Shown here piece by piece: positions 32,885 to 58,517 of a stretch of DNA of 59,275 nucleotides. Location: the IMG/VR virus record IMGVR_UViG_3300044468_000011, positions 1 through 59,275 of that record, one strand, 5' to 3'. Origin of the DNA: a virus (taxonomy: Duplodnaviria > Caudoviricetes). The first letter of the stretch is position 1, and every line of letters starts with the position of its first letter. Below the pieces are notes generated by a model. That model did no database searches. It was not told the origin of the DNA and was given only the letters and a program-made list of their open reading frames with translations. The translations under genes were made by a program, and so were the position numbers.

Positions 32885-33606
32885 TGACCTTTCGAGAGAA
32901 GCTCGCGCATGTGGCCAAAGACGATCCTGACTTCGCTCGCTCCGCCAAACGCTGGCGAATCGCATCGTGGCTCTTCGGGATCGCCGTCGTGGTCGCCCTC
33001 GCCTTCGGCGCCTGGTCGCTCAAGATCGGCTTCAGCAACAGCACGAAGATCACGAAGATCGAATCCCCGTGCCTGAAGTACGGGGCAAGGTCAGAGCAGT
33101 GCAAGGAAGCCTTCGAACAGGCGGTCCTCACGATTACCCATGCGCAGGCTTGCGCGATCCTGCGAAAAGCAGGACTCGAGATCCAACCGTGCGCCCATGC
33201 TCGCCTTCGGCAGGAAACTGCTCGGCGACGGGAACGAAGCGCTAGCGAGCAGCGTGCGGGTGGTGATGCCTCGCCGGACACCACCGGCTCCTTTCCATCG
33301 GGATCTCAGGATGGGGGTTCTGTGGGGGATGGGAAAGGGCGGGGTGGAGGCGAGGGCGGTTCCGGCGGCGGTGGTGGGCCCGCGGCGCCGAGTCCCTCCG
33401 ATCCTGATCCCGTGCCTGCTTCATCTCCACCAGGCCGCAGCTCTGACGCGCCCGGGAACCCAGAACCTCCAGCCGATCCTCCCCGAGCGCTGCCCTCCAC
33501 CCTGGAAGCCACCGGTGAGGCTGTGAAAGAAGCTGGGGAGGGTGCGGGGTCGGCGGTTGAAGGTGTTGGGAAAGGGCTGGATTGTGCTCTGCGGGGTGGG
33601 TGCTGA
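32884..33606 (+). CDS. Membrane-anchored protein with Gly/Pro-rich tail (lysis accessory?)
   Basis: TM helix, Cys pairs, low-complexity tail; TGATG coupling. Confidence 0.7.
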   Translation: MTFREKLAHVAKDDPDFARSAKRWRIASWLFGIAVVVALAFGAWSLKIGFSNSTKITKIESPCLKYGARSEQCKEAFEQAVLTITHAQACAILRKAGLEIQPCAHARLRQETARRRERSASEQRAGGDASPDTTGSFPSGSQDGGSVGDGKGRGGGEGGSGGGGGPAAPSPSDPDPVPASSPPGRSSDAPGNPEPPADPPRALPSTLEATGEAVKEAGEGAGSAVEGVGKGLDCALRGGC

Positions 33607-33679
33607 ACGCAAACGACCCGCCAGGAAGCGGGCCGGATGCGCAGAACGGGCAGGTTGTGAGACAGGCCCGCTAAGTCTC
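33605..33679 (-). terminator. Cassette A 3' element: stop hairpin plus terminator; direct repeat of 37396-37470
   Basis: 41-bp and 15-bp blocks identical to copy B; GGCCCGC-TTCCTG-GCGGGTC-GTTTGCGTT on minus strand. Confidence 0.8.
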
Positions 33680-34012
33680 TTGGACCGGAACGCCCGCTAC
33701 CCGTTTGATCGGGCCGGTCAGGTTGAGCATTGAGAGGGGGGCCTCCTCGGTTAGGAGGTCGCGCCAGTCTTCCGGGTGGATGAGGATTTCAAGCAGTCGC
33801 TCGTTGTCCGGGTCGCTGACCACCGCCGAATCGCCCTCTCCAAACGGGACCGCGAGCAGCCTGCCGAGCACTCGGGCTCGCTCGGGCGTCAGTGGCGCGG
33901 TCGTGATCGAACCTCGGATCGCGTCGGCCGTCACACGAATCTGAGCCACCGGCCTGTCCTCAGTCGCAGCCGAGTTGATCTCTCGCAAAATCGTTGCGTA
34001 CATCTGGTCCAT
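33671..34012 (-). CDS. Cassette A cargo, hypothetical (113 aa, ends QET)
   Basis: TAGAAT -10, GGAGG RBS, ATG at 34012. Confidence 0.8.
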   Translation of the reverse strand: MDQMYATILREINSAATEDRPVAQIRVTADAIRGSITTAPLTPERARVLGRLLAVPFGEGDSAVVSDPDNERLLEILIHPEDWRDLLTEEAPLSMLNLTGPIKRVAGVPVQET

Positions 34013-34133
34013 CTCGGGTCTCACCTCCGAGTAGTGGATTTACACCGCGCATTCTATCCCTTGACTTCACCCAGCCCAGACACCATCGTCTACAGATAAC
34101 GAGAGGGAGGCGCCGGAGAGGAGAGCCGTCGCC

Positions 34134-34358
34134 TTGCCCTCAGATCCTCCTCAGCATGTCTGGGTGGTCCACAAGAAGGGCGGAAAGCTCGATCCAATCC
34201 CGGTTGTCGATCCGGAGATCGCCGACCTCTTCCGAGACCAAGGCTGGCAGGTGACAGAAGTTCCGATTGCAGCCTTCAAAGAGGACGAGAGGGCGCTGCG
34301 GTGCTTGGGGATCGAGCCTCAGCGGCGGTGCGGCGGCGGCTGCACGAACGTCACCTGA
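34134..34358 (+). CDS. Hypothetical protein
   Basis: GGAG RBS; TTG start; overlaps the convergent gene. Confidence 0.45.
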   Translation: MPSDPPQHVWVVHKKGGKLDPIPVVDPEIADLFRDQGWQVTEVPIAAFKEDERALRCLGIEPQRRCGGGCTNVT

Positions 34359-34525
34359 CCGTCCTCGACGATCTGGTCTCCGGTCTCCAGTCCGTCCGCC
34401 TTGACCGAGCCGTCCCGCTGGAGGTTGAACATCACGAGAGGCCGCTCTGCTGGTTTCCCTGAGGCGTCAAGGACCTTGAAGGTCGTCGCCTCCGGTCCCT
34501 TCGCGATGACGGCAGTTCGCTCCAT
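34319..34525 (-). CDS. Hypothetical protein (leaderless-type moron)
   Basis: TAGGCT -10 shortly before ATG. Confidence 0.6.
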   Translation of the reverse strand: MERTAVIAKGPEATTFKVLDASGKPAERPLVMFNLQRDGSVKADGLETGDQIVEDGQVTFVQPPPHRR

Positions 34526-34571
34526 CGGCACCGAGCCTACACCCAGCTTCCCCCTGATCCTCGCCGTGAAG

Positions 34572-34901
34572 CTAGCCCTGTGCTTGACGCGCGACGATGC
34601 CCTGATTACGGAACGTGCGGGCCAGACGGCTGCGCTTCAGCGCGATCCGCCGCATCTCCGGTTCGACAAGCCGTTGCAGAATCTCCTCGGAGAAGAGTTG
34701 CTCGCGTCCACAGTGCGGAACGGTGCAGCGCAGGGTGACCATCCCGCGCTCGTGGTGGCGAATCCGCTCGGTGACCGGCGGGCCGTCATGCAGGCAGCGA
34801 GAGCGGCGGGCCTCACGGTCAAGAACCACCGCGTCAGCCTCGTCTCGGTACTCGTCGCCGATCAGGGCGATGGCCGAATCGAAAGCGTCCATCCGCTCCA
34901 C
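34572..34901 (-). CDS. Hypothetical protein (CxH..CxxxxC)
   Basis: GAGGTG upstream; start uncertain. Confidence 0.5.
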   Translation of the reverse strand: MERMDAFDSAIALIGDEYRDEADAVVLDREARRSRCLHDGPPVTERIRHHERGMVTLRCTVPHCGREQLFSEEILQRLVEPEMRRIALKRSRLARTFRNQGIVARQAQG

Positions 34902-34977
34902 CGTACCACCCACCTCTTCCTGAATTCCCTCGCCGCCTGAGCGCGGCCTCCATATCCAACCCGAAAGGAGGTCCGCT

Positions 34978-36606
34978 ATGCGGCGGACTCCGGCTGCGTT
35001 CCTCGTGGCCTTCCTCATCATGCTCGGCCTGGGCACCTCGCACGCGAGCGCCTGGGAGAACGGCAAAGCCCCGGCATCGGCAATGTCGCCGATCGCGACC
35101 ACCGTGAAGTGCGACCCGCTTCAGGGCCAGCTCGCCAACGAGGCGGCGGCGGGGTGGAACACGATGGCGCTCGCTGCCGGCGAACGTCTGGCGATCAACG
35201 GCTGCGACTCGGCCTACCGGCCCTATGACCGCCAGGTCTACATGAAGAACTACTGGTGCGCGCTGGGCGCGTGTCAGAACGCGGCCACCCCCGGCTACTC
35301 AAACCACGGCTGGGGCCTCGCCACCGACAACCCGACTACGACCCTCGGCTACATCGCCCTTCACGGCAAGCGGTTCGGCTGGTGCAAGTGCTGGTCGGAT
35401 GCGCCGTGGGAGAGCTGGCATGTCACCTACCGCGACGTCTTCAACCGGCCGAACCCCGGCCCCAATCTCCACTCGCCGACGCTGCGCCAGCACTCCGGCG
35501 GCCCTGGCCAGAACGTCTACGTCCGCAAGGTGCAGAAGCTCCTTCGCGGCCACGGCGACAAGACCGTCACGGTCGATGGCTCTTTCGGCTGGCAGACCCG
35601 CAAGGCGGTCGAACGCTTCCAGCGGGCCCAGCGGCTGAAGGTCAACGGCGTCGTCTCCAAGCGGGTGTGGAAGCGTCTGCGCCGCCCGATCTCCAAGCCG
35701 GTGAAGACGACCCCCGTCCACGTCGCGCCCGCCGGCACCGCTCCACCTCCGGCCAAGCCCCACCACAAAAAGAAGCACCACCAGGCTCCGAAGAACCGCA
35801 AGGCGTGGGGGATCGACATCAGCTCGAACAACGGGTGCCCGGCGACCGGGAATCCGGCGATCAACTTCAGGAAGGTCCGCCGCGACGGCGCCACCTTCGC
35901 GATCACGAAGTCGACTGAGAGCACCACCTACGTCAACCCGTGCTTCGGCCGCGCTCAGGTGCGGGCGATCGGTTCGGCCGGCCTGGTCCCCGGCGTCTAC
36001 CACTGGCTTACCCCGGGCGGCGCATCGGGCAAGGCCGAGGCCGCCTTCTTCGCCAACACGATCGGCCACGCCGGTTACGGCAAGGGGTTCCTGCAGCCCT
36101 TCGTCGATGTGGAGGAGCACAGCGGGATCTCCAGCGCGGCCTACTGCCGGGAGCTCGGCGAATTCGTCCACACCCTGAAGCGGGTCCTGGGCGAGAAGCC
36201 GATCATCTACTCGACGCCCAGCTTCGTCACCGACGAACTCGGCGGGGCCGCCTGCGGCTACCTCGACCACTACCGCCTCTGGATCGCCCACCTCGGCGTG
36301 AGGCACCCCGACGTGCCTGCGCCGTTCGGGAGCTGGGCGCTCTGGCAGTACACCTGGACCGCCCACGTCGCCGGGGTTCCAGGTGAGGTCGATGTCAGCA
36401 AGGTCTACGGGGGGACCAGGGCGCTCGCAACGCTCCGCGTTCGCGACCTCCCGCGCCGGGTTCGCAAAGCGCCGCGGGCGAAGCTCGAGTTGCCGCTTGC
36501 GGCTGAGTCCCGGGGGCGGTTGCTGAAGGCGGCGCCCGATAACCCGCATCCCCCGGCGGCAGATGCCACGCCGCCGGGGTCCACCGCCGATGAAGGGGGG
36601 TCCTGA
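34978..36606 (+). CDS. Endolysin: signal peptide, M15 peptidase, PG_binding_1 and GH25 muramidase
   Basis: SHASA/W cleavage site; SNHGWGLATD..ESWH; VDGSFGWQTRKAVERFQ; GIDISS..DVEE..WQYT. Confidence 0.93.
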   Translation: MRRTPAAFLVAFLIMLGLGTSHASAWENGKAPASAMSPIATTVKCDPLQGQLANEAAAGWNTMALAAGERLAINGCDSAYRPYDRQVYMKNYWCALGACQNAATPGYSNHGWGLATDNPTTTLGYIALHGKRFGWCKCWSDAPWESWHVTYRDVFNRPNPGPNLHSPTLRQHSGGPGQNVYVRKVQKLLRGHGDKTVTVDGSFGWQTRKAVERFQRAQRLKVNGVVSKRVWKRLRRPISKPVKTTPVHVAPAGTAPPPAKPHHKKKHHQAPKNRKAWGIDISSNNGCPATGNPAINFRKVRRDGATFAITKSTESTTYVNPCFGRAQVRAIGSAGLVPGVYHWLTPGGASGKAEAAFFANTIGHAGYGKGFLQPFVDVEEHSGISSAAYCRELGEFVHTLKRVLGEKPIIYSTPSFVTDELGGAACGYLDHYRLWIAHLGVRHPDVPAPFGSWALWQYTWTAHVAGVPGEVDVSKVYGGTRALATLRVRDLPRRVRKAPRAKLELPLAAESRGRLLKAAPDNPHPPAADATPPGSTADEGGS

Positions 36607-36851
36607 TGCCTGAGGTGCCCGAGCGCGTGCGCGCGTTCCTCGACCGCCTGCTCCCGAAGGAGCTGAGGGCCTACGTCCCCGGAGGCAAGCTCGTTGCCGG
36701 GGTGATCCTCGCCGTGCTGGCCTCCGTGTTCGGCATCGGCGGAGAGACCGTCGTCACGATCCCCGGCGTCGGGGATCTCACCGTCGCTGCCCTCGCCCTG
36801 GTGGTCGGGGTCTACCTCTACCCGGAAAAGGAAGACTCAGTGGACCGATAG
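36606..36851 (+). CDS. Holin
   Basis: Two TM segments; coupled to the endolysin. Confidence 0.75.
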   Translation: MPEVPERVRAFLDRLLPKELRAYVPGGKLVAGVILAVLASVFGIGGETVVTIPGVGDLTVAALALVVGVYLYPEKEDSVDR

Positions 36852-36904
36852 GCCTGTAGCCGCTACAACATCCCCGACCGATTCGAAAGACCCGGTCGCT
36901 CAGC

Positions 36905-36940
36905 GAGCCCTCGTCCCTCTCCCGGGACGGGGGCTTTTTG
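36905..36940 (+). terminator. Intrinsic terminator after the lysis genes
   Basis: GAGCCCTCGTCCC/GGGACGGGGGCTT stem followed by T-tract. Confidence 0.85.
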
Positions 36941-36967
36941 CGTTCCAGGGAACTAACCTCCGAGGCG

Positions 36968-37243
36968 ATGGAGAAATCCGAGATCGCGAAGCTGACCGCC
37001 GCCGTCGAACGGGTCGGCGACCTGATCGAAGACCAGAACAGGCCATCCCCGCTGATGGGCCCGGAGGCCCAAGCCTTGACGCTCCTCGGGAAAGACCCCG
37101 ACAAATTCGCCGAGGCCCGGCACCGGCGGGAGATGCAGGATCTGGCCGAGGAAGAAGCCAGGTCGGCGAAGCTCGCGGCCCGGTGGAGCGCGGTTGCCGC
37201 ACTGGCTGCCCTCGCAACCGCCGGGGTGAGTGCCTTCCGGTAG
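36968..37243 (+). CDS. Small protein with C-terminal TM
   Basis: MEKSEIAKL..WSAVAALAALATAGV. Confidence 0.65.
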   Translation: MEKSEIAKLTAAVERVGDLIEDQNRPSPLMGPEAQALTLLGKDPDKFAEARHRREMQDLAEEEARSAKLAARWSAVAALAALATAGVSAFR

Positions 37244-37395
37244 TGCGTTACGCCGTCTTCGTGATCATCAGCAGCGGGGCGGCTGAGGGGGCCGGGGCAA
37301 TGGTCATCTCAGCCGCCCTTGCCGGTGCTGGCCAGGGGGAACTGCTGGTGGGTGGAGGAGAGCCGCACCGGGAGAGCGTAGGCGCCTTGGGGCTC

Positions 37396-37470
37396 GAACG
37401 CAAACGACCCGCCAGGAAGCGGGCCGGATGCGCAGAGCGGGCGAAGCGGGAAGCTGGCCCGCTAAGTCTC
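37396..37470 (-). terminator. Cassette B 3' element; direct repeat of 33605-33679
   Basis: Same identical blocks as copy A. Confidence 0.8.
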
Positions 37471-37725
37471 CTGCCGATCTTGAATGCGGGCGAACAGGTC
37501 GGCCCCGTTGAGCTTCTCGGTGCGTTCATTGCCCTCTTCGGCTTCGATCGCCCGCATGGCGGCGACTTCTGCGTTTTCCTTCTTCGCATAAATGCCGGGG
37601 TCGAGCGGGTTGACAGGGCCCGCCTCGCGGCCGTCGCTGTGCGTCGCCCCCCAACTCCACCCAATTGCCGTGCGGTTGAACTCAATAGTCCAAGCAGACA
37701 GATCAAGCGTCTTCGTCTCAGTCAT
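37462..37725 (-). CDS. Cassette B cargo, hypothetical (87 aa, ends QET)
   Basis: TAAGAT -10, GGAGG RBS, ATG at 37725. Confidence 0.8.
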   Translation of the reverse strand: MTETKTLDLSAWTIEFNRTAIGWSWGATHSDGREAGPVNPLDPGIYAKKENAEVAAMRAIEAEEGNERTEKLNGADLFARIQDRQET

Positions 37726-37869
37726 CCCGGGCTTCCCCTCCGAGTTAGTGGATTTGCGTTCAAGCATCTTATCCCCTGGCCGGATGCCTTATGCAACCCA
37801 TCCGATTCACGGTACGAGCGTGGCTTCGTCTTGACAATCGATGATTGGTTGAGCATTCTTCCCGGCCGC

Positions 37870-38697
37870 ATGTCTCAAGTCCAACCTTCGGATGCCCGCG
37901 TCGCCTACGACGCGATGGCCCCGATCTACGACGAGTTCAACGCGGGGAACAACTACGAGCTCTGGCTTGGTGAGGTGCTGCTGCCGGAGTTGGAGAAGTA
38001 CGGTCTCCGCCGGCCCGGCCGGGCGTTGGATCTCGGCTGCGGCACCGGGAGAGCCTTCGAGCCCCTGCTTCGCCGGCGGTGGTCGGTATGGGGGGTAGAT
38101 GCCTCCGAGCGGATGCTGGAGCAGGCGAGGGAGAAGCTGCCGGATGCCTGGGGCTACATCGGGGAGGTCGAGCTGCGCCAGCATGATGCCCGGGATTTGC
38201 CCACGTTCGAGCGGCCCTCGAAACTCGGCGGGCCCCATCGGGTTCGCTTCGATCTCATCATCGCTTTGAACGACGTCGTCAACTACCTGACCGAGGACGG
38301 CGATCTCGAGCGGGTCTTCTCCGGCATGAAGGCGAACCTTTGGGAGGACGGGCTGGTCTGCTTCGACGCAACCTCCCTCGCCGTCTTCCACGGCTCCTAC
38401 ACACATTCTGGCGGGAGTTCGTCCCTGAGCGATCGGGGCTGGCAGTGGTTGGGGCTAACGGATCGGGCTGAACCCGGGGGTCTCTTCGAGGCCGAACTAT
38501 CCGGGGTCGACGTCGAGCCCCACGTGCATCGCCTACGTCATTGGCCGCGGGAGCAGATAGAAGCCGCTATGGGGGCGGCCGGGCTCCAGTGTCTCGCCGC
38601 CTTGGGCCAACGTGAGGAGGGGCGGAGCCTGATCCTGGAGGAGCCCGACGAGTCGGTCCATGAACGGACGATCTACATCGGGGGGCATCGTGGGTAG
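37870..38697 (+). CDS. Class I SAM-dependent methyltransferase (small-molecule/peptide type)
   Basis: YDAMAPIYD, LDLGCGTG, GVDASERML, FDLI..DVVNY; TTGACA-N17-CATTCT promoter at 37831-37859. Confidence 0.92.
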   Translation: MSQVQPSDARVAYDAMAPIYDEFNAGNNYELWLGEVLLPELEKYGLRRPGRALDLGCGTGRAFEPLLRRRWSVWGVDASERMLEQAREKLPDAWGYIGEVELRQHDARDLPTFERPSKLGGPHRVRFDLIIALNDVVNYLTEDGDLERVFSGMKANLWEDGLVCFDATSLAVFHGSYTHSGGSSSLSDRGWQWLGLTDRAEPGGLFEAELSGVDVEPHVHRLRHWPREQIEAAMGAAGLQCLAALGQREEGRSLILEEPDESVHERTIYIGGHRG

Positions 38698-38728
38698 CCG
38701 GGCCGACCTCGTTGACGGTCGGCCCGGC
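38697..38728. terminator. Hairpin between the convergent methyltransferase and peptide genes
   Basis: Perfect 12-bp inverted repeat GCCGGGCCGACC/GGTCGGCCCGGC. Confidence 0.75.
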
Positions 38729-38736
38729 CAAGAGGC

Positions 38737-38796
38737 TCAGGTCCCCTTGGAAGTGCTGAGGGCCGGGTACTGGCTCGGCGCAGTCGCGATCTTCAA
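38737..38796 (-). CDS. 19-aa peptide MKIATAPSQYPALSTSKGT
   Basis: AAGGGAGGTGA SD with 8 nt from GGAGG to TTG; TGA followed directly by the hairpin; fills the intergenic space. Confidence 0.65.
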   Translation of the reverse strand: MKIATAPSQYPALSTSKGT

Positions 38797-38837
38797 ATCG
38801 GTCACCTCCCTTCCCAGGCAGTCGGATCGGGTCAAGC

Positions 38838-39452
38838 ATGGGCGCTGAGGCGGACGGCAAGATCACGCCGAGGAGTGCGGCGCCCTACCTCCCGCCGGCC
38901 CTCCACGGTGTACTCGCCAACGAGCTCCGGCACGAGATTCTCATGCGCTGCGGCGAACGACCCTGGAGCGCGACGGAATTGGCGGAGGCTTTAGAACAAC
39001 CTCGCCGGAGAATCACCGACCAGATCGAAGAACTAAAGAAGCTTGACCCGCCCTTGCTGGAGTGCGTCGGCAAGAAGCCCAGCCCGAAAGGCGGGTCGAT
39101 GTTCATGTACAAGGCCGCGCGCTTTATCTTCAACACGGAGGAGTGGGACCAGCTCTCGCCGGTCGAACAGGCTGTCTCTTCCGCCAACATTGTGAAGCTG
39201 GTCACGGAAGAGTTGGCACGCGGGATTCGGGATGGCACCCTCTACAACACCAGCGATCACTACCTGCTTCGGGATCGCCAGATGGTCGATCGACAAGCAA
39301 TGGCCGAAATCAGGGAACTTCTCGACGAAGCGCATGATCGTTTCGTCGGCATCGCCACCACCGCCACCCAGCGGCTGGAGTCCTCCGGGGAGCGGCCGAT
39401 CCCCATCACGCTGGCCCTGGTATCCGGCGAGGTCGCCCCCAAAGGGCGCTGA
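38838..39452 (+). CDS. ArsR-like winged-HTH regulator with C-terminal domain
   Basis: LANELRHEILMRCGERPWSATELAEAL..LLECV; ~100-aa C-terminal domain. Confidence 0.85.
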   Translation: MGAEADGKITPRSAAPYLPPALHGVLANELRHEILMRCGERPWSATELAEALEQPRRRITDQIEELKKLDPPLLECVGKKPSPKGGSMFMYKAARFIFNTEEWDQLSPVEQAVSSANIVKLVTEELARGIRDGTLYNTSDHYLLRDRQMVDRQAMAEIRELLDEAHDRFVGIATTATQRLESSGERPIPITLALVSGEVAPKGR

Positions 39453-39784
39453 GGAGTACACCGAAAAAATCCGGGTCTTGACGGACCCCACTCAGTGCCG
39501 TTGACTGCACGAAAAGGTCGTCGTAATGGAGCGACGCCGACTATGAACGCGGGGGTACTGAGAGGTGCGCGACGTCAGGGGGGAAGGTGCTGGGCGAGTC
39601 GATGGAAGCGGGGCCGAACGTGGAGCGCGTGGTGATCTGGCCGATGATCACGATTCCTCCCCTAGAGCGCTTGGCCCCGCTTCGATCGAGCAGCCTACCC
39701 CTGAGCCTGACGAATTCGACCGCGCTAAGCGCATCGCCGACTACCTGCACCGGCAGGCGGCGATGATGCCACTCGACTCCCCCC

Positions 39785-40359: not shown

Positions 40360-40365
40360 TGCGCT

Positions 40366-46583: not shown

Positions 46584-47504
46584 ATGACCCCCGCAGCAAC
46601 CGAAGAGCTTCGCGCCTACCACGGCGACGAGGCGCTGAAGGAAGAGACCGTCGCCAAAGCGCGGATGCACAAAGAGGCCAGCGAGTTCGTCAAGGACCAG
46701 TACTTCTCCAAGAACGGGAAGACCAAAGTCTGCGCGGTCGGGTGCATCACCGAAGACCCGAACGGAGGCCACCATCTCTACCCGATTCGGTGGGGGATAC
46801 CAGAGTGGCTCGCTTACCTAGAGGAGAGGATCTTCACGGGGTTGCCCGACGAGAAGATGGCTGCCTGGCCGGAGCGTTTTCTTGACGCGATTCCCGTTGG
46901 CGCGGACTTCAGTGGTCTAGCGGACAGGCTCGCCATCCGCCGCTTGAAGGAGGAGTGCCTCCCGCTGAGCGGTCACTGGCCGGAGTCCGTGAGGGCGCAG
47001 GTAGTGGCATCTATCGAGCAGGCGATCGCCGCGCTCGAAGGAAAAGGTGACCGCGAAGCGGCGGCGCGGTCGGCGGCGTGGTCGGCGCGGTCGGCGGCGT
47101 GGTCGGCGCGGTCGGCGGCGTGGTCGGCGCGGTCGGCGGCGTGGTCGGCGGAGTCGGCGGCGTGGTCGGCGGAGTCGGCGGCGTGGTCGGCGCGGTCGGC
47201 GGCGTGGTCGGCGCGGTCGGCGGCGTGGTCGGCGCGGTCGGCGGCGTGGTCGGCGGAGTCGGCGGCGTGGTCGGCGGAGTCGGCGGCGGGGTCGGCGCGG
47301 TCGGCGGCGTGGTCGGCGCGGTCGGCGGCGTGGTCGGCGCGGTCGGCGGCGTGGTCGGCGGAGTCGGCGGCGTGGTCGGCGTGGTCGGCGTGGTCGGCGT
47401 GGTCGGCGCGGTCGGCGGCGTGGTCGGCGGCGTTCGAGCGTGAAGCTGATCGCCTCATCGCCGAGCTCGAAGCTCTTCCTGTTACCGGGATTGAGGCTGA
47501 GTGA
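46584..47504 (+). CDS. Hypothetical protein with SA(R/E)SAAW repeats
   Basis: GAGGAG RBS; CAVGC..GIPEWLA N-terminal domain. Confidence 0.85.
   Translation: MTPAATEELRAYHGDEALKEETVAKARMHKEASEFVKDQYFSKNGKTKVCAVGCITEDPNGGHHLYPIRWGIPEWLAYLEERIFTGLPDEKMAAWPERFLDAIPVGADFSGLADRLAIRRLKEECLPLSGHWPESVRAQVVASIEQAIAALEGKGDREAAARSAAWSARSAAWSARSAAWSARSAAWSAESAAWSAESAAWSARSAAWSARSAAWSARSAAWSAESAAWSAESAAGSARSAAWSARSAAWSARSAAWSAESAAWSAWSAWSAWSARSAAWSAAFEREADRLIAELEALPVTGIEAE
47061..47432 (+). repeat. 21-bp coding tandem repeat
   Basis: TCGGCG(CG/GA)GTCGGCGGCGTGG units. Confidence 0.95.
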
Positions 47505-47704: not shown

Positions 47705-48252
47705 TGCGCTACATCTGCCCCCAAGGCTGCGTAGAGGAGCGCGGCATGACGAAAGGCCACCCCGGAGAGTGCCCGGAGGGCCACGGCCGCTTCCGCTACG
47801 AGAAAGAACTACAGCGGGGTAAGCCCCTCTCTCGGGTCAGCCCTAAGAGAGCCGAGAAGGTGCGCCGGCAGGGCTCGACGGTCAACCGAAGCCGCGGCTT
47901 CGCCGTCCACCCGAGCCAGCGGGCGAAGGTGAAGGGCCGCCCCTGCGTCAACTGTGGGGCGGGCCCCTACGAGGGGGCGACGATCGACCCGGCCCACCTG
48001 ATCCCCCGGCACTGGGTCTCGTGCGACCACCCAGACGGCGTGATCCCACTCTGCCGGAAATGCCACGACGAGTACGACGTGCCGAGTGGCGGACTGGACC
48101 TCCTCTCCCGCCTTGAGGAACGGGGCTTCCACAAAGAGATGGCGCACTTCATCGGCGAGCACCAGGTGAATCCGCTGACCCTGCTGCGGTACGTGACCGG
48201 GGTCGAGTACGTGCCGAAATCAGAGTCCCCGGAGAAGGAGGGGGCGAGGTGA
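47704..48252 (+). CDS. HNH-like nuclease
   Basis: CVNCG..DPAHL..VIPLCRKCHDEYD. Confidence 0.8.
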   Translation: MRYICPQGCVEERGMTKGHPGECPEGHGRFRYEKELQRGKPLSRVSPKRAEKVRRQGSTVNRSRGFAVHPSQRAKVKGRPCVNCGAGPYEGATIDPAHLIPRHWVSCDHPDGVIPLCRKCHDEYDVPSGGLDLLSRLEERGFHKEMAHFIGEHQVNPLTLLRYVTGVEYVPKSESPEKEGAR

Positions 48253-48905
48253 GCGATCGCGCTGCAACTTCCGTGCGCGGTCAGCGAGGTCGCGGTATGG
48301 GCGGGCACTCGGTGCCAGGCGGCGGGCTCAGCAACGAGTGGTACACCCCGCCGGAGATCTTCGACGCGCTCAAGCTCTACTTTGACCTGGACCCCGCCCA
48401 CCCGCTCGATCGACTCTTCTGGATCCCGGCGAAACGGACCTACTCCAAGGCCGACGACGGGCTCTCTCAGCCGTGGGAGGGGAAGGTCTGGCTCAATCCG
48501 CCCTACGGGCGCGAGACCGACCCTTGGCTCGAGCGCTTCGTCGAGCACGGCAACGGGATCGCCCTCGTCTTCGCCAGAACCGAGACGGAGTGGTTCCACC
48601 GCCACGCGCTAGCGGTCGACGCCTGGTGCTTCATTCGCGGCCGGCTCACCTTCGTCCACGCGGATGGCCAGCCTTCGCACTTCAACGCCGGCGCCCCCTC
48701 GGTCCTACTTGCCTGCGGTTCGGAGTGCGTTGACGCCCTGATCCGGTCGAAGCTCGGGATTACGGTCGGCGTCAACGAGGCAGCCGCACACACTCAGGCT
48801 TCGATCTTCGCCGACCTCGCACCGACTCCTGAGATCTCAGGGGGGGGGGGCTCTAACCAGATGACCGTCGACCAGGTGATCGCGGATATAGAGGGGGCGG
48901 TGTAG
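48249..48905 (+). CDS. Phage DNA N6-adenine methyltransferase (Dam family), copy 1
   Basis: EWYTP, FDLDP, WLNPPY, ARTET.WF, FIRGRL. Confidence 0.9.
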   Translation: MSDRAATSVRGQRGRGMGGHSVPGGGLSNEWYTPPEIFDALKLYFDLDPAHPLDRLFWIPAKRTYSKADDGLSQPWEGKVWLNPPYGRETDPWLERFVEHGNGIALVFARTETEWFHRHALAVDAWCFIRGRLTFVHADGQPSHFNAGAPSVLLACGSECVDALIRSKLGITVGVNEAAAHTQASIFADLAPTPEISGGGGSNQMTVDQVIADIEGAV

Positions 48906-50883: not shown

Positions 50884-51673
50884 GATCAAGAGCCGCTGGG
50901 ACGGCAAGGTGCTGTACACGGCGGAGAACGCGCAGGACGTGCGAGCGGCGCTGGTTGAGGCAGCCGGTAAGCGCGCGTACCTCCAGGGCGCGTACCTCCA
51001 GGGCGCGGACCTCCAGGGCGCGGACCTCCAGGGCGCGGACCTCCAGGGCGCGGACCTCCAGGGCGCGTACCTCCAGGGCGCGTACCTCCAGGGCGCGGAC
51101 CTCCAGGGCGCGTACCTCCAGGGCGCGTACCTCCAGGGCGCGGACCTCCAGGGCGCGGACCTCCAGGGCGCGGACCTCCAGGGCGCGGACCTCCAGGGCG
51201 CGTACCTCCAGGGCGCGTACCTCCAGGGCGCGGACCTCCAGGGCGACGTCAACTCACCCAGCTACCCGCTCCACTTCTTCCGCGCCGATTACTGGTCGAT
51301 CCTGGACCAGGCGCCCGGCGATGTCGACTTCCTCCGCACGGCGCTGATTGAGGGCCGCGTCAACGGCAGCGTCTACAGAGACGATTCGGGTTGCGGCTGC
51401 CTCACGGGGACGATCGCAATTCACCACGGCTGCGATATCCGAGACCTCGCCAAGGAGACCGGCGTAGTACCCGACGCTGGCAGGCCGGCCGAGCAGTGGT
51501 TCATCGACATCGCCAAGGGTGACAAGCCGCTCCCCATCGACACGAAGGAGTGGCCCAACGAGTCGGTCTTCCGCCTCTCCTACGCGCTGGCCTGGCTTGA
51601 CGAATGGGTTGAGTCGCGGACGGCGATCGCGAAGGCCTTCAACGATAAGGAGGCGGCGAGAGGTGGCTGCTGA
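50873..51673 (+). CDS. Pentapeptide-repeat protein
   Basis: IEIKSRW N-terminus, 18 x A(Y/D)LQG, C-terminal CGCLTGT..PAEQWF domain. Confidence 0.92.
   Translation: MMIEIKSRWDGKVLYTAENAQDVRAALVEAAGKRAYLQGAYLQGADLQGADLQGADLQGADLQGAYLQGAYLQGADLQGAYLQGAYLQGADLQGADLQGADLQGADLQGAYLQGAYLQGADLQGDVNSPSYPLHFFRADYWSILDQAPGDVDFLRTALIEGRVNGSVYRDDSGCGCLTGTIAIHHGCDIRDLAKETGVVPDAGRPAEQWFIDIAKGDKPLPIDTKEWPNESVFRLSYALAWLDEWVESRTAIAKAFNDKEAARGGC
50975..51244 (+). repeat. 15-bp tandem repeat x18 (2 x 135 bp)
   Basis: GCG(T/G)ACCTCCAGGGC; pattern YYDDDDYYD twice. Confidence 0.95.
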
Positions 51674-52498: not shown

Positions 52499-52857
52499 TG
52501 GTCGAGCTACCTGATGGGGTGAAGACGGTGACCCTGTTTCGCCCGTCCGCGATGAACGGCCCGGAACGGCGCGTGGGTGAGTGGACGACCGATCAGCGAG
52601 AGGTCTGCCACCTCGGCGAGGAAGTGCAGACGGAGGAGTTCGTCGCCGTGTCCAACGTGCCTGCCATCGAAGCAGCAGCGGTGGAGAGGGTCAGGGAGGA
52701 ACTGCTTTCCGACGCGGCGAAAGGCGCGCTCTACGACGCCGACCGCCGGTACCAAAACGTCGATCCCCGCGAGCAGAGCGAGGACGGCTGGGCCACTGCG
52801 CTACTCGAAGCGGCCCTTACCCAGCTAGCCCAGAAAGGGGACGGGGACCGTGGCTGA
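52498..52857 (+). CDS. Hypothetical protein
   Basis: Coupled array. Confidence 0.7.
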   Translation: MVELPDGVKTVTLFRPSAMNGPERRVGEWTTDQREVCHLGEEVQTEEFVAVSNVPAIEAAAVERVREELLSDAAKGALYDADRRYQNVDPREQSEDGWATALLEAALTQLAQKGDGDRG

Positions 52858-53326
52858 GAGCTACCTGGATGTTCTGCTGGCGAGGGTGATGCCTGAGGGC
52901 GGTTCAGACTTCGACGGTGACAACGCTCAGGCGGGGGCCGCGCTTCTGGTCGGTCAGGCCGTACGCGACCTCTGCTGGAAGTCGATGCTCTACCGCTGCG
53001 AGAAGTGCGAGTTTGTATGGCGGATCTGGCTCGCCCTCGGCGTCGAAGGCCCTGAGCCGTTGCGGACCAGCGGCCTCTACGTGCCCTGCTCCTTTAGCGT
53101 CTCCTGCCCAGCGTGGCCGAGCATGCAGACCTGCGACGGACTGATGAGCCATATCGACTGGGCGGGGGATCAGGACTTCGCGCCGACGCTCCCGCCCGAC
53201 TCGGTTCCTCGGTTCGTCCTGCCGGATAGCGGCGGCACTTGCGCCCGCCTTCACATCCCGGAGCTGGCGCTGGTCGAAGCCCGCCGCGCTCTCAACGAGC
53301 CGCCCGAAGGAGACCCCCATGCCTAG
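52850..53326 (+). CDS. Hypothetical Zn-binding protein
   Basis: YRCEKC..LGVEGP..CP..C.GLMSH.DW. Confidence 0.75.
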   Translation: MAESYLDVLLARVMPEGGSDFDGDNAQAGAALLVGQAVRDLCWKSMLYRCEKCEFVWRIWLALGVEGPEPLRTSGLYVPCSFSVSCPAWPSMQTCDGLMSHIDWAGDQDFAPTLPPDSVPRFVLPDSGGTCARLHIPELALVEARRALNEPPEGDPHA

Positions 53327-54281
53327 CCCCTCCATCCCACAGGAGAAGATCGAGGAGCTGGCGAAGGTCCGGTACGAACGCAAGCAGGCGTCGGTTCACG
53401 GTCACCGGACGCCCTGGCGAGAAGCGCCCGACGAAATCAAAGCCCGGTGGCTGAAGACTGCCGCCGAAGACCTCACCGCCATCGGCTATGGGGAGCTTGT
53501 AGGGGAACGGGATCGGCTCAGCGAGGAAGCCCAGCGCACCCGGGACCTTCTCGCTACCCGGCTGGAGGTGGCCACCAACCTCTTCGGGGCCGCGCAAGCC
53601 CTGCTGGACCGCGCCGAGAAAGCCGAGCAGGAGCTAGGGCAGGTAAGGAGGCTGGAGGCTCGCGTGCGGACGGAGCGCAGCGAGCCCGATGACTCTCCCG
53701 ATCCCTTGGGACGGCTCTTCACCGACTACAAAACGCTCCTTTGGAGCGCCGCCGAACAAGAAGAACGAAGGAAAGCAGCGGAAGGCCAGCTCTCCCAGGT
53801 ACGGGAGGAGGTCGAGAAGATCGATCGCAGGGTCTCGTACGACTTCGGGCTCGACGCGATCCGGGCCATCCTCGACTCCGCACCATCCCTATTGGGGGAG
53901 CCGCTGGAGATAGAGCACGAGTTCGAGCTTCCTCCGAACCCTTGGCTGTACGTCTCGGGCCACCTCCTGACCGACGAGGCGATCCGCGAGCTGACCGGGC
54001 AGATCGTCCACGGCTCAGACGGCGAAGTCATTTCGCTTCCCTACCAAGTGGTCAAAGACGCTCTGGCCGATGTTCTTCGCCAGCTTGCCCGCAGCACCAA
54101 TCAGCCATCAGGGGAAGAGGAGAACAGCAGCGGGGTAGGGGCGGAGGTCTACCTAGTCCAGTGCGGCGAGTGCGGATTCATCGGCGGGCCGGAGCTTGGG
54201 CACTGCGCGAAGTGTGGCTACGACGGAATCGACCCACGGAGCGACGGGCGATTCTGGGTGCCCGTGGAGGGAGCAGCCTGA
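53319..54281 (+). CDS. Mosaic hypothetical protein (coiled coil plus C-terminal Zn ribbon)
   Basis: CGECG..CAKCG. Confidence 0.75.
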   Translation: MPSPSIPQEKIEELAKVRYERKQASVHGHRTPWREAPDEIKARWLKTAAEDLTAIGYGELVGERDRLSEEAQRTRDLLATRLEVATNLFGAAQALLDRAEKAEQELGQVRRLEARVRTERSEPDDSPDPLGRLFTDYKTLLWSAAEQEERRKAAEGQLSQVREEVEKIDRRVSYDFGLDAIRAILDSAPSLLGEPLEIEHEFELPPNPWLYVSGHLLTDEAIRELTGQIVHGSDGEVISLPYQVVKDALADVLRQLARSTNQPSGEEENSSGVGAEVYLVQCGECGFIGGPELGHCAKCGYDGIDPRSDGRFWVPVEGAA

Positions 54282-54688
54282 TGCTCTTGTACACCTGTCA
54301 AGCCTGCGTTCACGGCCAGCACGATCTCTGCGCTGGGAAGCAGGCTCCACCGCAGGGGATGCTGGGTGGTAGCGAATGTGACTGCGACGGTAACTGCGCC
54401 AGCCGAGCGAAGCCCGATCCTCAGATAGACGCCCTTGCCCAGCAGCAGCACACCACCCCCGTATCTGGAGAGCCGGGGGATCGGGAGCGGCTGAATCGGA
54501 TCGCCGCCAGCTTCGACTACAAGGCCGCCGCGAACCCCTCCCAGTACGCCCGCGAGGCCGACGAAAAGAACGCCGCCTTCCTACGTGACCTCGCTTCCCG
54601 CCTATCAGTACAGGACGGGGGCGGGGAGTTCGGCCTGAGCGAGGACGACAAGCTCGCGGTCCAAGAGGAGACGGAACCCAATGGCTGA
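54281..54688 (+). CDS. Mosaic hypothetical protein
   Basis: CQACVHGQH..CDC; DRERLN module. Confidence 0.7.
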   Translation: MLLYTCQACVHGQHDLCAGKQAPPQGMLGGSECDCDGNCASRAKPDPQIDALAQQQHTTPVSGEPGDRERLNRIAASFDYKAAANPSQYAREADEKNAAFLRDLASRLSVQDGGGEFGLSEDDKLAVQEETEPNG

Positions 54689-54748
54689 TCAACACGCTCC
54701 CGGCTCCTGGGAAGTCGATCAGTCCGGCTGGCCCGAGCAGAGCAACCA

Positions 54749-55054
54749 ATGGCCAGGGGGAAGCAGGTGAAGGCGGAGTGGCCCCCGATCAAGGTGATGC
54801 GCGACCCCCAGGAGGAGACCTACGAGGTCGTCTTAGGAGGTCTCGAGTCGGCGCCCTACGAGTCGGTGGGCTTGGAGTTCAGAACCTATGTCCCGGCTCG
54901 GCAGCTCCTGGAAGAGCTCAAAGGTGAGGTAGAGGAACTGCGCCTCGCAGCGATTCAAGCCGTCCAGCCGGAGGGCTACCGGCTCACCGAGGCTGCCGCC
55001 AACCGCCTCACCCAGATCATCGACAAGTACACGGAGGCCCTGGCCAATGAGTGA
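54749..55054 (+). CDS. Hypothetical protein (start possibly GTG 54767)
   Basis: Coupled array. Confidence 0.65.
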   Translation: MARGKQVKAEWPPIKVMRDPQEETYEVVLGGLESAPYESVGLEFRTYVPARQLLEELKGEVEELRLAAIQAVQPEGYRLTEAAANRLTQIIDKYTEALANE

Positions 55055-55409
55055 CCAGCAGGTAGAGAGGATCGCACCAGAGCACACCGGGGTAGAGGAC
55101 TGCCGGCGGGTAAGCGACGAGGAGATTGCGAAGATGGCCGTGGACGCGGCCCGAGCGGCGGCGCTCGTCTTCGCGGCGAACGGCTGGACCTACGGTCGAG
55201 GAGTCGAGCGGTTCACGCCGAGCGAGGCTCACCTCAGGAACACCATCCACCGTCTGCTCGTCAACGCCCGGGCGGGCGGTCGTGACACGTCGGTCGGAAC
55301 CGGCCGCTTCAACGTCCATCGCTTCATTCAGGACGGCGAGGAAGTGCTCCAGGTCGACCTTGGCCTGAGTGACAGCGATGAGGAGGTGGTCCGAAATGTC
55401 CGGCCCTGA
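55047..55409 (+). CDS. Hypothetical protein
   Basis: FAANGWTY..GTGRF. Confidence 0.75.
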   Translation: MSDQQVERIAPEHTGVEDCRRVSDEEIAKMAVDAARAAALVFAANGWTYGRGVERFTPSEAHLRNTIHRLLVNARAGGRDTSVGTGRFNVHRFIQDGEEVLQVDLGLSDSDEEVVRNVRP

Positions 55410-56196
55410 CACCGGAGTAGAGGAGGCGGTTGAGGGACTTCAGCGGTTTGTCCCCGGCATGGCCGACGTGGGACACCAGGACGGCAGCGAATACCCGACG
55501 ATCAAGCCGCACGACGAAGGGGATCTTCTGCGACGAGCGGACGTGCTCGCCGCCATCCAGCCCTTCCTTACCCAGCCCTCTCTCGCCACGATCCGCGCGA
55601 CCCTGCTCCGTGACGAGGTGGTCGATGCGGTCGCCGAAGAAAACGCGATCCAGGAGCTGTACGGCCACTGGGAGGACATCCCGAGCCGCGAGAACAAGGG
55701 AGCCCGCCAACGCCAGCGCTACGCGCAACTCGCCAAGAAACGCGGCGTGCAGGAGTCGTGGAAAGAGGGCGCCCGGCGCGACATCGAGCGCTTTCTTGAT
55801 CTTCTCGCCGCGCATCTTCCCCAGCCCGAGAAGAACAGCGGCGGGGTAGAGGAGGCGAAGTGGCCGGACGGTCAGCGCGGCGAGAGATCCATCGCCGTTT
55901 GCCCCGAGCACGGATTCATCGACCAGGACCACCTCCAGTGGGACGGCAAGGAGTTCCACAACCTCTGCTTCTGCGGTGAGACCTGCGAGTTCGTCTCGGT
56001 GTTGCCCGCCCCCTCCCAGCCCCAGCTCTCCGATGAGGACCGGGAGCGGCTCAACCTGACCGCGCAGATGTGCGAGCTGCGAGTTGCCGACCTTGAGGCG
56101 GATGACTCACCCGTCTCGGCGGCTCACTGGCGAGAGGCGGCGAAGCACCTCCGCAAGCTCGCCTCCCAGCAAGGAGAGGGCGGTGATCGCTCGTGA
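55396..56196 (+). CDS. Mosaic hypothetical protein
   Basis: GGAGGT RBS; internal linker motifs; CPEHG..CFCG; DRERLN module. Confidence 0.75.
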   Translation: MSGPDTGVEEAVEGLQRFVPGMADVGHQDGSEYPTIKPHDEGDLLRRADVLAAIQPFLTQPSLATIRATLLRDEVVDAVAEENAIQELYGHWEDIPSRENKGARQRQRYAQLAKKRGVQESWKEGARRDIERFLDLLAAHLPQPEKNSGGVEEAKWPDGQRGERSIAVCPEHGFIDQDHLQWDGKEFHNLCFCGETCEFVSVLPAPSQPQLSDEDRERLNLTAQMCELRVADLEADDSPVSAAHWREAAKHLRKLASQQGEGGDRS

Positions 56197-56462
56197 GCGC
56201 CGCGACCGGGCGGATCAACCCGCGAGCCATCGACCGGGTGATGGCGGTGGTCGAGGCCGAGAGTGACGGCGACCACCTGACCTCGCACTGGATTCTCGCC
56301 CGCAAGGTGCTCGGCGAGTCCAAGCAGTTCGCCTTCGAAGTCGCGACCGCCTTCCGCCACCACCGCCTTACCCGCGCTGAGTGCGAGGGCATGGTCTCGG
56401 ACTGGCTGACCGACGAGAGCGAGTGCCAGCACCACGTATCCACCAAAGGCCAGGAGGAGTGA
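56193..56462 (+). CDS. Hypothetical protein
   Basis: Coupled array. Confidence 0.65.
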   Translation: MSAATGRINPRAIDRVMAVVEAESDGDHLTSHWILARKVLGESKQFAFEVATAFRHHRLTRAECEGMVSDWLTDESECQHHVSTKGQEE

Positions 56463-56463
56463 G

Positions 56464-56958
56464 ATGGAAGCGATTGAGCAGCTCACGCATCGGACGCCCG
56501 ACGAAGAGCGCCAGAGGTCAAACGAAGCGGCGGGCCACACCCCCTGCGGTCACTGCGAAGGGACCGGAAACGAGCTGTACGCGATGTACCGGTGCTGCCC
56601 GGAGTGCGGCGGATCAGGGATCGAGGTCGAGTACGGCGAGCTTTCACCGCTCGGTCGCTGGTGGGCGGAACGTCGCGAGCAGCGGGAGCGCAAGCGCCTC
56701 GCCCGCAAGTACGCGCCGCCCCGCGACTGGAGGCTCGAAATCGCTTGGCGCGCCTCGCGCTGGTTCGGCATCGGCCAGTGTTTCGGCGGCGCAGAGACGT
56801 GCCATCGGTGCGGTGCTCCAGCCGGAGACATCGACTACGAAGTCCGCCGGGTCCGCCCGTTCCGGGTCGAGTGCCTAGACCGCGCCATGTGCGACGACGC
56901 TCGCGCCGAACTCGCCGCGTCCACCCAGCCCCGAGTCCAGGAGAGAGATCGTGGCTAG
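56464..56958 (+). CDS. Zn-finger protein (CxxCxGxG)
   Basis: CGHCEGTG..CPECGGSG..CHRCG. Confidence 0.75.
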   Translation: MEAIEQLTHRTPDEERQRSNEAAGHTPCGHCEGTGNELYAMYRCCPECGGSGIEVEYGELSPLGRWWAERREQRERKRLARKYAPPRDWRLEIAWRASRWFGIGQCFGGAETCHRCGAPAGDIDYEVRRVRPFRVECLDRAMCDDARAELAASTQPRVQERDRG

Positions 56959-57250
56959 GGAGGGGCAGAAGCAGGGCGGTTTCGCTCATGAAACCGTCGA
57001 GGAACGGTTTGGCTTCGCCAGCTTCGAGGACGCGCTGACGGCTTACCGCAACCAGACCTACACCGAACTGGTTCCCGGCGAGGAAGCGGAGGTCATCGCC
57101 CATGCGGCCCGGTGCGCCCGTGACCTCCAGTACGAGGTCGAAAACATCGTCCGCGATCTAGAGCGCGCCGCCGAGAAAGCCGCCGCGCAGGAGCCTGCCG
57201 CCTCCACCCCACAACCAGCAGACCAGCAGGAAGGAGAGCAGCGTGACTGA
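56951..57250 (+). CDS. Hypothetical protein
   Basis: Coupled array. Confidence 0.7.
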   Translation: MAREGQKQGGFAHETVEERFGFASFEDALTAYRNQTYTELVPGEEAEVIAHAARCARDLQYEVENIVRDLERAAEKAAAQEPAASTPQPADQQEGEQRD

Positions 57251-57479
57251 TTTGCCGAAAAAGGCTTACTGCGTCCGACGCCGGGTCCACGCGATAGACG
57301 AGATGTTGGTCTATGCCGACTCGGTCGAGCACGCGAAGGAACGGGCGAAGGCGGGCGAGTGGGTCTACACCGAGCGGCTGGAACGGCTGGAGATCCTCGA
57401 CACGCGCGCTGAACTAATCGAGGTCGCCTCAAAACGGCCATCTACCCAGCCCACCGGTAAGAAGCGAGGTGAGCAGTGA
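57243..57479 (+). CDS. Hypothetical protein
   Basis: VYADSVEHAKERA. Confidence 0.7.
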   Translation: MTDLPKKAYCVRRRVHAIDEMLVYADSVEHAKERAKAGEWVYTERLERLEILDTRAELIEVASKRPSTQPTGKKRGEQ

Positions 57480-58033
57480 ACGAGACCGCGACGATCGGAA
57501 TGGGCGGTCGCCTCCACGCCGGCGGCTCGAACGAGTGGTGGACGCCGCCCTTTATCTTCGAAGGTCTAGGCCTCGACTTCGATCTTGACCCCTGCGCGCC
57601 GATCGGCGGCCCCGCCCACGTCCCAGCCGCCACCTACTACACCGTCCTCGATGACGGCCTGCGCCGGCCCTGGGAGGGAAGGGTGTTTCTGAACCCCCCG
57701 TACGGCTCTGAGGCAAAGAGATGGGTGGCGAAGCTCATGGAGCACGGCAACGGGATCGCCCTCGTCTTCACGCGGACCGATGCGAAATGGGGACAGGCCG
57801 CCCTCCGGGCAGCCGATGCGGTCTGCTTCATCAAAGGTCGCCTCGCCTTCGAGGAGGGCTACCGGGAGGAGCGCGAAGAACGGGAACGCGCCGAAGGCAA
57901 GGAACCCAAGCGACCCGGCCACAACGCTGCCAACGGCTCGATGCTCCTCGCCTACGGGCCCGAGTGCGCCCGAGCGGTCCTCGACTGCGGCCTTGGAGTC
58001 TGCCTGGTTCCTGACCGGCGGGGTGAGCAGTGA
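57476..58033 (+). CDS. Phage DNA N6-adenine methyltransferase, copy 2
   Basis: EWWTPP, FDLDPC, FLNPPY, RTDAKW, FIKGRL. Confidence 0.9.
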   Translation: MNETATIGMGGRLHAGGSNEWWTPPFIFEGLGLDFDLDPCAPIGGPAHVPAATYYTVLDDGLRRPWEGRVFLNPPYGSEAKRWVAKLMEHGNGIALVFTRTDAKWGQAALRAADAVCFIKGRLAFEEGYREEREERERAEGKEPKRPGHNAANGSMLLAYGPECARAVLDCGLGVCLVPDRRGEQ

Positions 58034-58101
58034 GCCCCATAACGACGAACGCCCCCGAAGGGGCGCCATCGCTTACGGGACTCGTCGGGAAACTGGTCCC
58101 G

Positions 58102-58428
58102 TCAAGTCTGGGGCGCGGGGTCGTGGCTGCCGGACCGCTGGGCGTCCAAAGCCGCAACCTCTGCGTCGGTGGCCGGCCGAATTCCTTCGATCTTCGGCGA
58201 GCGCCAGGAGCGGTGCGCCGCAAGAATTGCCTCCGCCTTGTCACGGTCATAGCGGGACGCCTCCGCCGGATTCTCGGTCGAGGAGAACACGGCGCCTGCG
58301 TGTCCGTGCCCGTGCCCGTCGCCAAAGTGCGGGCCGGTTACGAAGACCCTGTCGGCCGGGTTGAACGGGACTCCGTTAAGCGAGCCCTCGCCCTTCATGC
58401 GAGTGATTACTACTTGCTTCGTGTCCAT
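58102..58428 (-). CDS. Cassette C cargo, hypothetical (108 aa, ends QT)
   Basis: GATAGAATGC -10, GAGGGG RBS, 3' hairpin plus GGCGCCCC-TTCG-GGGGCGTT terminator. Confidence 0.75.
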   Translation of the reverse strand: MDTKQVVITRMKGEGSLNGVPFNPADRVFVTGPHFGDGHGHGHAGAVFSSTENPAEASRYDRDKAEAILAAHRSWRSPKIEGIRPATDAEVAALDAQRSGSHDPAPQT

Positions 58429-58517
58429 CCGAGGTTTCCCCTCTCAGATCGGATTGCAGATACCTGCATTCTATCGGAGCGGTCAACCCCTACCCAGCAG
58501 GAACGGGGGGTGAGGGG

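Follow-up and report, generated by a model that had tools for sequence, protein, structure and literature searches.

The window analysed here is the whole 59,275-bp stretch of the IMG/VR provirus record IMGVR_UViG_3300044468_000011 (estimated 77% complete, ~65% G+C), and it holds three small minus-strand gene cassettes, A, B and C, in which single open reading frames (ORFs), the cargo, lie between closely similar 5' and 3' untranslated regions (UTRs). This UTR pair is a portable module, surrounding 13 unrelated cargo families in the 15 complete cassettes that we collected. The main addition of the analysis concerns the two ends of this module: the loop of the 5' hairpin, which contains the Shine-Dalgarno (SD) sequence, and the loop of the first 3' hairpin are complementary and covary, a feature that a preliminary description of this DNA had missed. 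We think it probable that the cassettes are units of the moron type, belonging to a temperate tailed Solirubrobacterales phage, and that they use a portable pair of UTRs whose 5'-3' pairing controls translation or stability and whose homology permits the exchange of cargo.

Complementary loops in conserved leaders and trailers

In these cassettes, the leader ends in a hairpin whose 5-bp stem abuts the ATG and whose loop carries the SD, and the first hairpin of the trailer abuts the stop codon. A core of 6-8 nt in the SD loop is the exact complement of the core of the 3' hairpin loop in all 15 cassettes. Four classes of core (5' core/3' core) were distinguished: GGGAAGC/GCUUCCC in nine cassettes, including B; GUGAGAC/GUCUCAC in A and in two loci outside the window (L083 and L117); GGGAAAC/GUUUCCC in C and L017; and GGAGAC/GUCUCC in L137, the last being the GUGAGAC class minus 1 nt on each side. 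The core is constant and the surrounding loop bases are variable. Non-cognate 5'/3' combinations within the window are complementary over only 3-5 nt, and cassettes A and L046, the cargo of which is homologous, belong to different loop classes.

An alignment of 14 whole cassettes (A5) was evaluated over three helices, where 97% of cells are paired, most of the unpaired cells stemming from two rows whose 3' loops are misaligned. Both partners change in seven of the pairs, and these values were reached by none of 500 shuffles. Control structures in which the partner was slid by 1-3 columns retained 31-56% pairing. Furthermore, the G-U pairs of the stems are compatible with the sense RNA only, and the cognate loop-loop duplexes have predicted energies of -9.7 to -16.3 kcal/mol, with the exception of L047, which has a shortened hairpin. 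Unconstrained duplex folding of the whole UTRs was also tried, and was set aside as it returned uninformative GC-rich pairings.

The similarity between cassettes begins near the predicted transcription start and stops at the terminator. Where the cargo is unrelated, identity amounts to 74-89% over the 34 nt that lead up to the ATG and to 79-89% over the 65 nt that follow the stop. Taken together, the UTRs of the cassettes compared are 74-100% identical, whereas their coding sequences (CDS) and the DNA ahead of the leader align at 40-62%, taken to be about background. Conservation is thus largely limited to the untranslated parts of the predicted transcript. In the case of L023 and L096, the 5' UTRs are identical at 34 of 34 positions while the synonymous divergence (dS) of the CDS is 1.07, meaning that synonymous sites are saturated.

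The arms quoted for the 3' hairpins in the preliminary description do pair as stated, and the predicted folds of the 3' UTRs are much stronger than those of their shuffles (z -4.6 for A, -5.0 for B and -5.8 for C; 0 of 200 shuffles as good). The 3' flanks of A and B form a 78-nt repeat of 86% identity, with terminators identical over 41 nt. Terminators had been described for all three cassettes: those of A and B were indeed called by a terminator scan, whereas that of C was not, its T tract being too weak for the scan's rule. Rfam covariance models returned only tRNAs at the gathering score, besides two chance-level matches (E ~0.9) elsewhere in the loci.

Exact matches to GATARRATGC occur three times in the window, all upstream of the three ORFs, and exact matches to AGACTTRRCGGG also three times, all at the three stops. 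With up to one mismatch, GATARRATGC gave six matches against 4.67 expected, and with up to two mismatches AGACTTRRCGGG gave 15 against 16.8 expected; as neither pattern is then more frequent than in shuffled sequence, only the exact copies are meaningful. The composite pattern GATARRATGC-N(6-16)-AATCC matched three times on the reverse strand and never on the forward strand, and its reversed control gave no match. In 14 of the 15 cassettes, a TANNNT box with a G upstream of it is found at a constant distance from the leader, and this G-N-TANNNT arrangement resembles the extended -10 elements of actinobacteria. Because a sigma-70 scan found no -35/-10 promoter at any of the three cassettes of the window, the promoter call draws solely on this -10-like box.

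Several observations weigh against a functional pairing of the two loops. Nested folding yields a 5'-3' pairing probability of ~0 in 13 of the 15 mRNAs (0.17 and 0.57 in the other two), and addition of the 3' UTR barely alters the predicted accessibility of the SD, the nested thermodynamic model being one that cannot represent loop-loop pairing. Among 6806 non-cognate gene pairs of this GC-rich genome, 2.1% have a complement of at least 7 nt between a window of 14 nt at the SD and the 30 nt downstream of the stop. Behind the four classes there may be no more than about five compensated events among related sequences, a relatedness that the shuffle control for covariation ignores. Unlike the 3' UTRs, the 5' hairpins do not surpass shuffled sequences in stability (z -1.2, +0.4 and -0.5). 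Moreover, the 5' loop of B pairs with the 3' loop of C via G-U (-10.7 kcal/mol), and the orthogonality of the window's three classes was dropped as a candidate on account of this cross-pairing.

In a plainer account, the flanks would be ordinary expression signals (an actinobacterial -10 element, a strong SD and a terminator) that were copied with recent moron duplications, the ORF being replaced later and the complementarity having no function. The -10 box and the SD are near consensus, and the identical terminators of A and B suggest recent copying; the rate of 7-nt complements among random gene pairs and the failure of nested folding to predict the pairing fit it too. We nevertheless consider it distinctly unlikely. 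The complement is present in all 15 cassettes and in four classes, with every change compensated, including the paired deletion in L137; the loop bases around the core vary freely and the slid controls collapse; and the UTRs remain 74-100% identical across phages even though homologous cargo has reached saturation at its synonymous sites.

A family of cassettes with unrelated cargo

The family was followed beyond the window by several searches. The homologue of cargo A in another IMG/VR phage (63% identical protein) retains both flanks. Scans with the leader pattern found both flanks at three of seven matches in viral records, and 11 of 86 matches in metagenomes proved to be real cassettes (eight with a typical end, two with a shortened hairpin, one cut by the contig end). 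In species-representative genomes, three of the 12 matches carry both flanks, all of them in metagenome-assembled genomes (MAGs) of Solirubrobacterales, an order within Thermoleophilia, in agreement with the guess of Thermoleophilia made in the preliminary description. When the constant parts of the 3' flank were used by themselves, four loci were returned, of which three are real, each with an in-frame 5' module; one of these, L137, is an additional cassette that the 5' pattern would have missed, and the fourth, L136, was rejected since it is without a 5' module and a terminator. In a sample of 401 Thermoleophilia genomes, 12 had a match to a relaxed form of the 5' hairpin pattern; just one of these (G006) has a cassette, the other 11 matches lying in coding sequence, and the reversed-pattern control gave four.

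After removal of duplicates, the total stands at 15 complete cassettes from IMG/VR phages, metagenome contigs and three Solirubrobacterales MAGs, with one cassette per related record or genome and three in the window. One contig around a metagenome homologue was recovered as L013 and as L046, through the related-locus search and the metagenome pattern scan. Three further pattern matches in related records (L015, L138 and L139) were judged to be chance. The 5' pattern extended by the -10 box had one match in IMG/VR, a chance match in low-GC coding sequence, the box being unsuited as a search pattern because it is too weakly conserved. In five relatives with a 58-68% identical endolysin, the flanks are absent from the loci examined (7.6-13.5 kb; up to 6 kb on each side, as far as the contigs extend).

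The lack of similarity between cargos that had been described for the window was borne out. BLASTP at E<=100 gave nothing for A-B and A-C, and for B-C only a 6-residue match (E 0.34). Among all 15 cargos, BLASTP at E<1e-3 relates only A to L046 and L023 to L096; hence the 13 families, a count that reflects this BLASTP criterion, although some families may be related remotely or at the level of the fold. The expectation of many different ORFs between the same flanks was thus confirmed. The ratio of nonsynonymous to synonymous divergence (dN/dS) is 0.23 for A/L046 and 0.11 for L023/L096, which marks the cargos of both homologous pairs as real genes. The 15 ORFs span 49-235 aa, and a Thr codon, ACT, directly precedes the stop in 13 of them, Ser codons taking its place in the other two. 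The two cassettes C (58417-58428) and L017 (2523-2534), which have a type II leader, also have their first four codons (MDTK) in common, the rest of the proteins being unrelated.

Seven homologues were found in metagenomes for cargo A and three for cargo C, and a search of 5.8 billion proteins returned for cargo B nothing beyond the window's own gene call. Comparison of the three proteins with viral contigs gave nothing for A and C, and for B one spurious partial match inside another gene. No Pfam or PHROG membership was detected for A, B or C. Cargo A was modelled with a pLDDT of 79.5 and cargo C with 67.5, the latter too weak for a fold search; comparison of the A model with PDB and BFVD by Foldseek gave nothing at E<=0.001, and the best VIA Z was 3.4. 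The suggestion that the cargos are defence or exclusion effectors gained no support, as none of the ten cargos compared with PADLOC had a meaningful match, none reached a Pfam cut-off, and the cargos contain no hydrophobic segment (maximum 19-residue Kyte-Doolittle hydropathy, KD19, 1.39). Thirteen of the 15 are net acidic, and several contain paired CxxC motifs.

The conserved UTRs, of ~35 and ~65 nt, may act as homology arms through which cargo is exchanged between phages and sites. A RecT-like single-strand annealing protein and an exonuclease are encoded side by side and in the same orientation in the phage (42228-43918); they are relevant to short-homology recombination and render such exchange plausible. 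Also in keeping with homology arms, the syntenic position between a homologue of ORF 30871-32631 and the lysin holds different cargo in the window, L096, L023 and L064. The swapping of cargo by recombination, as put forward in the preliminary description, is therefore plausible in these two respects; on the other hand, recombination at the UTRs was not observed, and no empty or hybrid cassette is present among those found, which counts against this part of our interpretation. In the contigs of four sequencing runs, which are short fragments giving partial cover, no joint that removes or replaces a cassette was seen.

A DNA-level explanation also comes to mind, since the cassettes have a hairpin at either end, sharply defined limits at the ATG and at ACT-stop, and a wide range of unrelated cargo. 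By this account the two hairpins would be recombination sites of a mobile gene cassette (in the manner of integron attC or IS200/IS605-type ends), recognised by a recombinase as folded single strands. Integron cassettes are unrelated ORFs bounded by a structured recombination element; they are mostly promoterless, are arrayed beside an integrase and end in attC. In contrast, the present units are dispersed, and the 59-kb record, 77% complete, contains no match to the tyrosine recombinase family PF00589, for which the control genomes gave matches in 14 of 14 cases. The 3' element of the cassettes consists of a hairpin and a terminator. Furthermore, the conserved sequence passes both hairpins, reaching to the transcription start on one side and, on the other, through a terminator that has a T tract on the sense strand only, while the hairpin stems differ, only the loops are complementary, and the G-U pairs would fail to match if read on the opposite strand. 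We therefore regard recombination sites of this kind as very improbable.

The three cassettes in their genomic setting

The three minus-strand ORFs and the motifs quoted for them lie where they had been placed in the preliminary description, with the correct lengths (113, 87 and 108 aa), and the features of each cassette are collected in Table 1. Transcription is predicted to start at the A of ACUGCAAUCC. Public gene calls use other starts for two of the ORFs, giving 101 aa for B (37462-37767) and 98 aa for C (58102-58398). We favour 87 aa and 108 aa, because the ATG then sits behind the conserved SD hairpin and flanks.

Table 1. Positions of the elements of cassettes A, B and C in the window
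Feature	Position	Strand	Remarks
Cassette A, -10-like box GATAGAATGC	34049..34058	-	exact pattern match
Cassette A, 5' UTR	34013..34046	-	single-stranded leader, AATCC at 34036-34040, then hairpin
Cassette A, 5' hairpin CTCGG/CCGAG	34013-34031	-	SD in loop; loop core GUGAGAC 34018-34024
Cargo A	33671..34012	-	113 aa, ends QET-TAG
Cassette A, 3' hairpin 1	33647..33670	-	abuts stop; loop core GUCUCAC 33657-33663, complement of 34018-34024
Cassette A, intrinsic terminator	33605..33646	-	stem 33614-33635, tail TTTGCGTTC; terminator scan
Cassette B, -10-like box GATAAGATGC	37764..37773	-	exact pattern match
Cassette B, 5' UTR	37726..37761	-	hairpin CTCGG/CCGGG 37726-37744; loop core GGGAAGC 37731-37737
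Cargo B	37462..37725	-	87 aa, ends QET-TAG
Cassette B, 3' hairpin 1	37438..37461	-	loop core GCUUCCC 37448-37454, complement of 37731-37737
Cassette B, intrinsic terminator	37396..37437	-	stem 37405-37426; terminator scan
Cassette C, -10-like box GATAGAATGC	58466..58475	-	exact pattern match
Cassette C, 5' UTR (type II)	58429..58463	-	hairpin CTGAG/CTCGG 58429-58447; loop core GGGAAAC 58434-58440
Cargo C	58102..58428	-	108 aa, ends QT-TGA
Cassette C, 3' hairpin 1	58076..58101	-	core GUUUCCC 58087-58093, complement of 58434-58440
Cassette C, second hairpin with weak T tract, probable terminator	58041..58075	-	3' UTR fold z -5.8; not called by scan

Nearly all genes of the window are on the plus strand, and the cassettes are antiparallel to their neighbours, as dispersed single units 3.4 and 20 kb apart; in the family as a whole, the nearest called neighbours are on the opposite strand in 11 of 14 cassettes. 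Cassette A lies between the tail genes (tail fibre 27211-30867, ORF 30871-32631) and the endolysin (34978-36606), B past the lysis genes (small genes downstream of the endolysin) and ahead of a methyltransferase ORF, and C between a Dam-like methyltransferase gene and the next plus-strand gene. The endolysin is made up of three domains, VanY-like, PG_binding_1 and GH25, and a second VanY-type peptidase ORF is present at 1-813. A plus-strand terminator at 36905-36936, after a putative holin gene, has the same TTTGCGTTC tail as the cassette terminators.

Three methyltransferase ORFs are encoded (37900-38697, 48249-48905 and 57476-58033), the last two having a 56-nt stretch of 82% identity in common (48538-48593 and 57735-57790). 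An RNA ligase ORF resembling T4 Rnl1 stands beside phage tRNA genes for Met, Arg and Glu, with one for Ser further on (1703-2740, 3841-4621 and 11435-11522); together these could serve to repair or replace tRNAs, as a counter to anticodon nucleases. Long in-frame tandem repeats occur in two plus-strand ORFs, at 46978-47462 and at 50895-51314, with steps of 9 and 12 nt in one and a 15-nt unit in the other, and the second of these ORFs matches PHROGs of unknown function.

Proposed regulation and relation to known systems

In the interpretation that we favour, the two loops of the full-length mRNA would pair with each other, through a kissing contact or 5'-3' UTR interaction. Such pairing may mask the ribosome-binding site or alter the stability and decay of the mRNA, whatever the cargo, and our guess as to the direction of regulation is repression. 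The stop codon is situated in the foot of the 3' hairpin, so that a terminating ribosome would be expected to open this hairpin.

The same complementarity might alternatively serve in trans, if the 3' hairpin and terminator were released by cleavage, or produced on their own, to give a small RNA of ~70 nt that acts on the SD loop of every cassette in its class. A hairpin followed by a terminator is the usual build of small RNAs derived from 3' UTRs, and in the one phage that has three cassettes each belongs to a different class. The idea was prompted by a conserved GA-CUU before the hairpin in 13 of the 15 cassettes, considered together with the tendency of RNase E in mycobacteria to cut immediately 5' of cytidines (PMC10641625; PMC6448022). 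A cut at GA-CUU would, however, strip the stop codon from the mRNA; three classes among three cassettes are not unlikely by chance (rough estimate ~0.15), and the classes of B and C cross-pair through G-U. Furthermore, we know of no RNase E specificity for Solirubrobacterales. A trans-acting fragment is thus regarded as unlikely, if somewhat less so than functionless expression signals.

Turning to described systems, pairing between a 3' UTR and the SD region of the same mRNA has precedents. In the icaR mRNA of Staphylococcus aureus, the 3' UTR motif UCCCCUG pairs with the SD region, blocks initiation and makes a substrate for RNase III (PMC3868564). The cassettes likewise have a C-rich 3' UTR motif complementary to the SD region; icaR is a single chromosomal gene and its 3' UTR is long, whereas the short UTR pair described here, known from sequence, is common to 13 unrelated genes and has several classes. 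In hok mRNA, a long-distance 5'-3' fold-back (tac/fbi) keeps the full-length mRNA closed and its SD sequestered until 3' processing (PMC9841398). Here, too, a 3' element is complementary to the SD region, its pairing being proposed. Unlike in hok and other type I toxin-antitoxin systems, the cargo is not a small hydrophobic toxin and no antisense RNA gene is known.

Morons are independent transcription units inside the prophages of temperate phages (PMC3594210). The cassettes resemble them in having their own promoter-like box and terminator and in lying between tail and lysis genes or among early genes. They differ in that both UTRs are almost the same, base by base, in unrelated units of different phages, and that the two are mutually complementary; morons are not described as having UTRs of a standard type. 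A second parallel is provided by the PeSL elements of T4-type phages, where promoter and stem-loop terminator motifs flank unrelated ORFans and shuffling by homologous recombination has been proposed (PMC2839356, PMC4122927). Both systems place conserved promoter and stem-loop motifs around unrelated ORFs. PeSLs combine a terminator and a promoter in one composite unit that lies between co-oriented genes, within hyperplastic regions of lytic myoviruses that infect Gram-negative hosts, whereas the leader and trailer described here enclose a single gene, usually antiparallel, in actinobacterial proviruses. In addition, the conserved part of the cassettes is UTR RNA with covarying complementarity, and no mini-circles are known for them.

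Cluster K mycobacteriophages carry SAS/ESAS elements, in which a G/C-clamped SD motif precedes, by a few bases, the ATG of genes of different families and is suspected of a role in translation initiation (PMC3203893). The presence of a conserved, clamped SD motif before the start codons of unrelated actinobacteriophage genes is common to both. The 13-bp SAS consensus GGGATAGGAGCCC has no match in the window with up to two mismatches, and, in contrast to the cassettes, SAS elements precede many co-oriented non-structural genes and are not known to have a paired 3' element. A search with the 19-nt hairpin string did not find the module described in print, and the papers found on Solirubrobacterales prophages were unrelated, subscription journals being outside the coverage.

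A more far-reaching version of the preferred interpretation would see the UTR pair as a natural programmable expression chassis, with genes captured precisely between a kissing-loop leader and trailer of several classes, the trailer perhaps also acting as a small RNA in trans on all cassettes of its class, and with several separately controlled accessory, possibly anti-defence, channels per prophage. This is put forward tentatively, as a doubtful possibility.

If the loop pairing is functional, the cassettes would represent family-wide 5'-3' UTR communication in bacterial-type mRNAs, backed by covariation across unrelated genes where icaR and hok are single-gene cases, and the phages would supply newly acquired genes with a ready-made control circuit that does not depend on the cargo. 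The flanks are a search handle, by which accessory genes of an almost unstudied phage group can be recovered without protein homology. Finally, a short UTR pair with interchangeable loop classes could be a compact regulatory part for Actinomycetota.

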